Assembly: GCF_003334405.1 (NCBI RefSeq)
Contig: NZ_QOWM01000026.1
Source of the DNA: Escherichia coli
Lineage (GTDB): Bacteria > Pseudomonadota > Gammaproteobacteria > Enterobacterales > Enterobacteriaceae
Direction: 5' to 3' (one strand)
DNA length: 37,729 nucleotides
The stretch's first letter is position 1. The number at the start of each line of letters is the position of its first letter. A program made the translations under genes and the position numbers. This document shows positions 24,541-24,831 of this stretch, piece by piece. Below the pieces are notes generated by a model that saw only the letters and a program-made list of their open reading frames with translations, had not been told where the DNA came from and did no database searches.

Positions 24541-24831
24541 ATGAAATTAAAAATAGTTGCGGTGGTTGTAACTGGTTTGTTAGCTGCGAACGTAGCACAC
24601 GCTGCCGAAGTCTATAACAAGGATGGTAATAAACTCGACCTTTATGGCAAGGTTACCGCTCTACGTTATTTTACTGATGATAAGCGTGACGATGGTGATA
24701 AAACTTATGCCCGTCTCGGCTTTAAAGGAGAAACGCAAATCAATGATCAAATGATTGGTTTTGGTCACTGGGAATATGATTTTAAAGGCTATAACGATGA
24801 AGCCAACGGCTCGCGCGGCAAGAATCTCTGA
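24541..24831 (+). pseudogene. yddL: N-terminal fragment of an OmpC/NmpC-family porin (truncated)
   Basis: 96-aa ORF with signal peptide and porin N-terminal motifs ([17 protein letters not shown]...[15 protein letters not shown]) that stops where a roughly 350-aa porin would continue. Confidence 0.8.

Follow-up and report, generated by a model that had tools for sequence, protein, structure and literature searches.

What kind of gene is yddL, an open reading frame (ORF) of 96 codons in the fdnG-yddG-yddL-yddK/yddJ-narU-narZ region of Escherichia coli, and how did it come to be so short? The question was followed on a 37,729-nucleotide stretch of E. coli DNA (contig NZ_QOWM01000026.1 of assembly GCF_003334405.1, in the following termed the window). 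With high confidence, we regard yddL as a non-functional relic that corresponds to the initial 278 nt of what was the Escherichia ortholog of the Salmonella porin gene ompD and that was left behind by a history of two deletions. The gene itself is already known: RefSeq/PGAP lists it as "porin; incomplete; missing C-terminus", EcoGene treats it as a pseudogene, and its resemblance to the 5' end of the O157:H7 gene Z2239 has been described (Okeke et al. 2011, PMC3079680). This work adds the junctions at base resolution, the recognition of the neighboring yddK as a chimera, the positional orthology to ompD, and the population frequencies of the different arrangements.

The yddL product was searched against all PDB chains by phmmer, and the best matches were OmpF (2.5e-29) and an Enterobacter porin (3.8e-28), followed by the chains of OmpC, OmpK36, and PhoE (1e-24 to 1e-27). 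The mature crystallized porin chains start at yddL residue 22 (AEVYNK), and the alignments end at residues 88-92. Against the NCBIfam profile of the OmpC porin subfamily, a score of 126.6 bits was reached, covering profile positions 1-89 of 368; the full-length cutoff is 484 bits, and a protein so far below it must therefore be a fragment. By these alignments, the product is a genuine porin N-terminus, and the N-terminus only, with a match far beyond chance. Its translation agrees letter for letter with the residues given in the original prediction. The original prediction had described a porin gene remnant retaining the signal peptide and the first beta-strands, and this is borne out by the E-values against the PDB porins (1e-24 to 2.5e-29 over residues 1-90); the formal alignment to porin N-termini by which it was to be judged gave clear similarity with both phmmer and the NCBIfam profile. 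The typical arrangement of a Sec signal peptide with an AXA site and a mature start of the AE(I/V)YNKDGNK type is present as A-H-A/AEVYNK. Since none of the 96 residues is a cysteine, a lipobox is missing and the older label "predicted lipoprotein" cannot be right. Judged by the OmpC and OmpF structures, the 75 mature residues make up roughly strands 1-4 plus a portion of loop 2. The profile match does not extend to a full 16-strand barrel of approximately 340 mature residues, and neither the loop 3 constriction motif PEFGG nor the C-terminal aromatic assembly signal (...YQF) is found in yddL, which ends with ...SRGKNL.

Other E. coli strains still carry the missing part of the gene at this locus. 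In O157:H7 (locus L001 of our comparison set) and in strain 550 (locus L002), yddG is followed by an intact porin gene of 366 codons, by leucine-rich repeat (LRR) genes including espR1, and by narU. The intact porin scores 495.8 bits, above the cutoff, over profile positions 1-368 of the same OmpC-subfamily profile, contains the motif LPEFGGDTW, and ends with GITYQF. Strain 550 carries two intact LRR genes in tandem, namely LRR1 with 421 aa (L002 4105-5370) and the EspR1-like LRR2 with 431 aa, read from a GTG start; L001 5431-6690 is annotated as espR1. Over porin nt 1-277/278, yddL is 100% identical on the nucleotide level to the intact alleles of both strains. The same holds for K-12 yddL (b1472), which is the same gene with an identical 278-nt porin part, as it is in many other genomes, and Z2239 of O157:H7 is the intact counterpart.

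The window is colinear with the O157:H7 locus in three blocks with base-resolved junctions (Table 1), and it is colinear with the strain 550 locus as well. At the first junction, porin identity extends up to 24818 and LRR1 identity begins at 24816, leaving a shared CGG within an imperfect match of 10 out of 13 positions. The deleted segment (L001 3119-4663, 1,545 bp) held the 3' three-quarters of the porin gene, the spacer between the two genes, and LRR1 up to about codon 187. Through its loss, porin nt 278 now runs, in the wrong frame, into the central part of LRR1. The measured length matches the 1,548 bp of "O-island 62" of strain EDL933 (Perna 2001; Okeke et al. 2011, PMC3079680). From position 24819, LRR1 reads CAA GAA TCT CTG ATT GAG (QESLIE), while yddL reads GGC AAG AAT CTC TGA, and what is foreign in it thus amounts to no more than the three terminal codons, KNL, and the stop. 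The original prediction had placed the breakpoint around 24800-24850, where it was indeed located, at 24816-24818. It had also seen divergence near the C-terminus of yddL, which is true for KNL and the stop, whereas the ten preceding residues are the porin's own, as the intact allele of strain 550 reveals.

The second deletion removed 653 bp between two copies of a 12-bp repeat common to LRR1 and LRR2. The frame was kept, and the LRR1/LRR2 fusion reads NEVTIDLSGLNL. Between the end of the yddL stop codon at 24831 and the ATG of yddK at 24855 there is a gap of 23 nt, in agreement with the earlier estimate of about 25 bp between yddL and the LRR gene. This ATG is not a true gene start, as it represents an internal Met of LRR1 (SAHHNMITDL). 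Read in this way, yddK is an in-frame chimera of LRR1 (~aa 200-296) and LRR2 (from ~aa 87), and yddJ the frameshifted C-terminus of LRR2. No insertion sequence (IS) element, repeat, or extra DNA was detected at either junction in the base-by-base comparison. Since the two deletions account for everything, neither a "replacement" nor an "insertion of yddK" is needed. A deletion-derived pseudogene should have an unbroken allele at its locus in conspecific strains, colinear flanks, a defined junction, and a broken frame, and each of these was found here.

For an estimate of how common these arrangements are, 5,426 complete E. coli genomes were surveyed with a 2.3-kb query (window 24200-26500), which matched 5,411 of them. 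The matches fall into three arrangements. The long form, with an intact porin, is carried by O157:H7, ST648, and strain 550, among others; in the short, K-12-type form, yddL is followed by an LRR pseudogene marked "frameshifted" by RefSeq; and in the empty form, as in strain BH100 (locus L004), yddG is directly followed by narU, with window 23300-24366 joined to 26322-27000. Junction-spanning 80-mers, counted when at least 80% covered, detected junction 1 in 3,141 and junction 2 in 3,129 genomes; the two essentially always co-occur and therefore define one haplotype. The 278 nt at the 5' end of the porin gene occur in 4,260-4,267 genomes, and the segment lost in the first deletion is still present in 1,100-1,119. 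Expressed as shares, the remnant accounts for approximately 58%, the long form for 21%, and the absence of the locus for 21% (~1,160 genomes). The junction of the empty haplotype (L004 5167-5176) carries about 10 nt, AAAGTCATTT, only loosely resembling the left flank in the window (24367-24377 / 26312-26321). A few records other than full chromosomes also carry the yddL fragment (four places counted as plasmids, e.g., NZ_CP159530.1 with 298,830 bp); these could represent either large pieces of a chromosome or plasmids derived from one.

The direction of the change follows from the outgroups. In Salmonella (L007) and Citrobacter koseri (L005), the genes are arranged as fdnIHG, yddG, porin, a GFA-domain gene, an MFS transporter gene, which we take to be smvA, a TetR regulator gene, narU, and narZ. 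In Escherichia albertii (L009), a porin gene also follows yddG, although it is split by IS1 after approximately codon 83. The porins of E. coli, Salmonella, C. koseri, and E. albertii thus all occupy one chromosomal position, immediately after yddG and flanked by the fdn and the narU/narZ operons, and because a full porin gene follows yddG in the outgroups, the long form is ancestral. Outside E. coli, the nearest relatives of the intact porin were found in E. albertii (91%, partial), C. koseri (77%), and Salmonella (OmpD, 72-73%), and its identity to the positional Salmonella OmpD is 75% at the amino-acid level. Only the porins of C. koseri and of other Citrobacter and Enterobacter outscore the Salmonella proteins named OmpD, while NmpC and Lc, with 66-67% identity, lie below the syntenic porins. 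Moreover, about 170 nt upstream of the porin ATG can be aligned across the genera, including the upstream regions of Salmonella and C. koseri ompD. Taking position and similarity together, yddL is the remnant of the E. coli positional ortholog of ompD.

In Salmonella enterica, OmpD is the major porin and is encoded next to yddG, with an upstream leader that can be aligned to that of E. coli. Compared with it, yddL keeps only codons 1-93. The downstream neighbors differ as well, since Salmonella ompD is followed by the GFA gene, smvA, and smvR, whereas the E. coli porin gene is followed by the LRR genes. The GC content of the E. coli porin gene is 44% and that of LRR1 and LRR2 33-35%, which fits an old resident porin with LRR neighbors acquired later; in the other two genera, the porin gene has 49-50%. 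The gene usually cited as the "ompD-like" gene of E. coli is nmpC, located in the DLP12 prophage of K-12 and interrupted by IS5, and it is likewise an inactivated porin of the OmpD/NmpC/Lc clade. The difference is that nmpC sits in a prophage and was knocked out by an IS element, whereas a deletion put an end to yddL, the positional ortholog on the chromosome.

The porin has been lost more than once. Strain 7/2 (L012 2717-3817) carries an internal stop in the porin gene along with a different, independent LRR1/LRR2 fusion, a different porin-LRR deletion is found in EC-1639 (L014 2717-3748), and the IS1 insertion of E. albertii (L009 5137-7014) adds a further case. This repeated, independent inactivation across Escherichia may hint at selection against the porin, and together with the ~1,160 empty genomes, we count it as support for the relic reading.

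The following course of events emerges. The ancestral locus comprised fdnGHI, yddG, the 366-aa porin gene, LRR1, the EspR1-like LRR2, and narU. By illegitimate recombination at the 3-bp CGG microhomology, the 1,545-bp deletion fused porin codon 93 out of register to the central part of LRR1. The 653-bp deletion between the 12-bp repeats generated the in-frame LRR1-LRR2 fusion and, with it, yddK and yddJ. The upstream region, Shine-Dalgarno sequence, ATG, and signal peptide of yddL are unchanged from the intact allele, and the 96-aa precursor could still be made, as the original prediction had suggested for an exported porin fragment. Transcription of yddL is probably still possible and would read into yddK/J because the porin terminator was deleted. 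The precursor may then be exported and cleaved to a periplasmic fragment of 75 aa. With 4 of 16 strands and no constriction loop, this fragment would form no pore; as twelve strands and the C-terminal Phe signal are missing, assembly is not expected, and degradation in the periplasm is the probable fate.

With regards to transcription, a look for a promoter in the AT-rich region 24282-24540 upstream of yddL had been suggested. A candidate could be placed there by homology (Table 1) on the basis of the 69-nt 5' untranslated region of Salmonella ompD (PMC4911921), with a predicted transcription start near 24468. However, the candidate failed a consensus promoter scan, and the number of promoter-like sites within 24200-26600 (9, compared to 11 ± 3.4 in shuffled sequences) was not elevated. 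The two plus-strand matches upstream of yddL, at 24381-24409 and 24466-24495, were unremarkable, and the terminator scan likewise did not exceed shuffles. The sole terminator-like site in 24200-26600 is a GC-rich hairpin, CCGGGTCTACGGCCCGG, at 24290-24306 just after the yddG stop, which scored on the minus strand.

Several observations weigh against a relic without function. Across the records, yddL is nearly invariant, with at least 99% identity in 4,235 of 4,268 and an intact ORF. Among eight alleles, the 5' part of the porin gene shows 3 variable sites in 277 positions compared to 32 in 824 for the rest, which is approximately 3.5-fold lower. Few insertions in yddL were reported in a TraDIS study (sequencing of transposon-directed insertion sites), and a role in osmotic stress has been proposed (Tsoy and Eisenhaber 2023). 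At the RNA level, the seed site for the small RNA (sRNA) RybB is weaker in yddL than in Salmonella (-13.7 vs. -18.3 kcal/mol), yet only 1% of shuffled sequences reach this value, bearing in mind that the sole check on the sRNA seeds used was that they reproduce, on L007, the duplexes published for Salmonella. A separate caveat concerns the orthology: the porin is 75-77% identical between genera and YddG 86-90%, and replacement of the porin by a foreign copy at the same site has to be kept in mind, also in view of the GC contents given above. None of the points on retention requires a function, as the haplotype is of recent origin, no other part of a porin is as conserved as its N-terminal strands, and approximately 21% of the genomes are without the locus. 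The low 5' polymorphism represents a modest deficit that is compatible with the usual conservation of these strands. Between the remnant and the two intact alleles, 0 of 278 positions differ, with 1.8-2.7% differences in yddG; this seemed remarkable (P ~0.002-0.005) but was attenuated to the above contrast once eight alleles were included. When these two intact alleles are set against each other, they begin to differ exactly at nt 278, the position of the deletion junction.

The proposal of Tsoy and Eisenhaber (2023) would make yddL a functional, small, exported outer-membrane protein of four strands that contributes to solute permeability under osmotic stress. It can draw on the intact ORF, Shine-Dalgarno sequence, and signal peptide, on a predictor returning four beta-strands, on co-occurrence with osmotic-stress genes, on the low TraDIS insertion index, and on an array study in which the yddL signal changed, i.e., differential expression. 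We nevertheless consider such a function very unlikely. The product covers no more than positions 1-89 of the 368-position profile, has neither the terminal aromatic residue nor the PEFGG loop of the intact allele, and ends in a tail of out-of-frame LRR DNA. Since about a fifth of the genomes (~1,160 of 5,426) do without the locus, the low insertion index cannot mean essentiality. Co-occurrence among accessory genes is expected from shared phylogroup ancestry, and this co-occurrence and the four-strand prediction, on which the osmotic-stress proposal rests, are both expected for a lineage-restricted porin fragment.

A second alternative looks at the RNA and supposes that the remnant was co-opted, be it that the former ompD leader became a decoy for Hfq and RybB or that promoter and leader of the porin were captured to drive yddK in a yddLKJ operon. 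In its favor, the leader shares homology with that of Salmonella ompD, where an AU-rich Hfq site is present, the RybB seed duplex beats 99% of the shuffles, no terminator-like site was found between yddL and yddK in the scan of 24200-26600, and a genomic SELEX (systematic evolution of ligands by exponential enrichment) study reported an RNA polymerase holoenzyme site within yddLKJ. Nonetheless, the MicC and SdsR sites that are functional in Salmonella appear to be lost in E. coli. With the seeds used, the MicC site reaches -15.5 kcal/mol in Salmonella and -7.7 kcal/mol in yddL, and the SdsR site in yddL -11.9 kcal/mol, neither of the yddL values being better than shuffles. No Rfam match was obtained in the yddL region, neither for the whole window at the gathering threshold nor for 24200-25000 at E ≤ 1. 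In addition, the yddK ATG is preceded by no recognizable Shine-Dalgarno sequence, and yddK is devoid of both effector N-termini and is itself frameshifted. We consider co-option as RNA very unlikely. The decoy idea was set aside with the apparent loss of the two sites, as only the weakened RybB seed is left, and is kept as a rival of low probability. In more general terms, the remnant could have been retained through any new role, be it as an sRNA-titrating Hfq/RybB leader, as a driver of yddK, or as an exported peptide disturbing porin assembly or signaling. Although there is little chance of this, it would account for an ORF that is intact, for the low polymorphism within its 277 nt, and for the low transposon-insertion score.

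Disruption of the porin by incoming foreign DNA was implied by the original prediction, which presumed a replacement event, and by the published "insertion of yddK" (Okeke et al. 2011). The drop in GC content to ~30-35% downstream of the junction and the absence of the yddK protein as such from O157 could be read this way. However, every base of yddK/J can be traced to LRR1 and LRR2 of the long haplotype, colinear and with 93-98% identity, and neither junction bears an IS element, a repeat, or extra DNA. The LRR DNA was already the porin's neighbor in the ancestral order and still is in ~1,100 genomes; the replacement claim has to be given up in favor of an internal deletion, and we attach next to no probability to foreign DNA as the cause. 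Equally close to negligible is a reversed polarity, with the short K-12-like form ancestral and the O157 form created by insertion of "O-island 62", for although the 1.5-kb segment was first catalogued as an O157-specific island, such an insertion would have needed to complete exactly two truncated genes (a full-profile porin and a 421-aa LRR), and a full porin gene follows yddG in Salmonella, C. koseri, and, IS1-split, E. albertii.

The significance of the deletion relic lies mainly in annotation, where yddL should be listed as such and not as an uncharacterized small outer-membrane protein or lipoprotein. This status bears on recent lists of "dark genes" and on TraDIS calls of "essential" genes. 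The published model of an insertion of yddK is corrected, in that the K-12 locus represents two deletions from a porin-LRR1-LRR2 ancestor. Furthermore, a chromosomal positional ortholog of Salmonella ompD has been identified in E. coli, while the sRNA literature usually equates ompD with the prophage gene nmpC.

Table 1. Features of the yddG-narU region in the window, with their positions and the basis of each assignment.
Feature	Position	Strand	Basis or remark
yddL ORF	24541-24831	+	ATG start, 96 aa
Sec signal peptide, codons 1-21	24541..24603	+	A-H-A cleavage motif; mature PDB chains begin at residue 22
Retained mature porin segment, precursor residues 22-93	24604..24818	+	aligns to OmpC, OmpK36, PhoE chain residues 1-70
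Foreign yddL tail	24819..24831	+	Gly codon third base, AAG AAT CTC TGA; LRR1 DNA, one base out of frame
Shine-Dalgarno AAGGA, 9 nt upstream of ATG	24527..24531	+	read from sequence; identical in L001 and L002; conserved in Salmonella and C. koseri
Putative porin promoter	24432..24461	+	-35-like TTGTTT 24432-24437, 18-nt spacer, -10-like TAAAAA 24456-24461; homology only
Deletion junction 1	24816..24818	.	shared CGG inside imperfect 10-of-13 match; base-by-base comparison
Deletion junction 2	25130..25141	.	12-bp repeat CATTGATTTATC common to LRR1 and LRR2
LRR1 middle segment, ~aa 188-296 of the 421-aa strain 550 gene	24819..25141	+	97.9% identity to L001
LRR2 (EspR1-like), ~codon 87 to end	25142..26184	+	frameshift-broken into yddK 3' part and yddJ; 93.3% identity to L001
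Colinear block 1	23300-24824		L001 1601-3124; 98.2% identity
Colinear block 2	24816-25141		L001 4661-4986; 97.9% identity
Colinear block 3	25130-26600		L001 5628-7088; 93.3% identity
Variable yddG-narU segment, missing from empty haplotype	24367..26321	.	L004 comparison

A literature search on Z2239 and EspR1 yielded nothing further on the porin. Compared with K-12, the window differs at four positions within 24200-26500, all of them downstream in yddK/J and none in yddL. These are a 1-nt deletion at 25447 and substitutions at 25212, 25738, and 26045 relative to K-12 RR1, and therefore the window is not K-12 itself. The deletion at 25447 splits yddK into two ORFs (24855-25451 and 25430-25810).

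The part of the window covering LRR2 and the spacer before narU (25142-26465) is diverged by ~6-10% from O157 and strain 550, whereas the divergence does not exceed 0-3% in yddG, narU, and the porin part. The contrast suggests an allele mosaic or fast evolution of an effector-like gene. Further upstream, the Rfam element SECIS_3 (84.3 bits) was detected on the minus strand at 22528-22586, at the selenocysteine codon of fdnG, which is therefore displayed as two ORFs (20121-22532 and 22581-23168).
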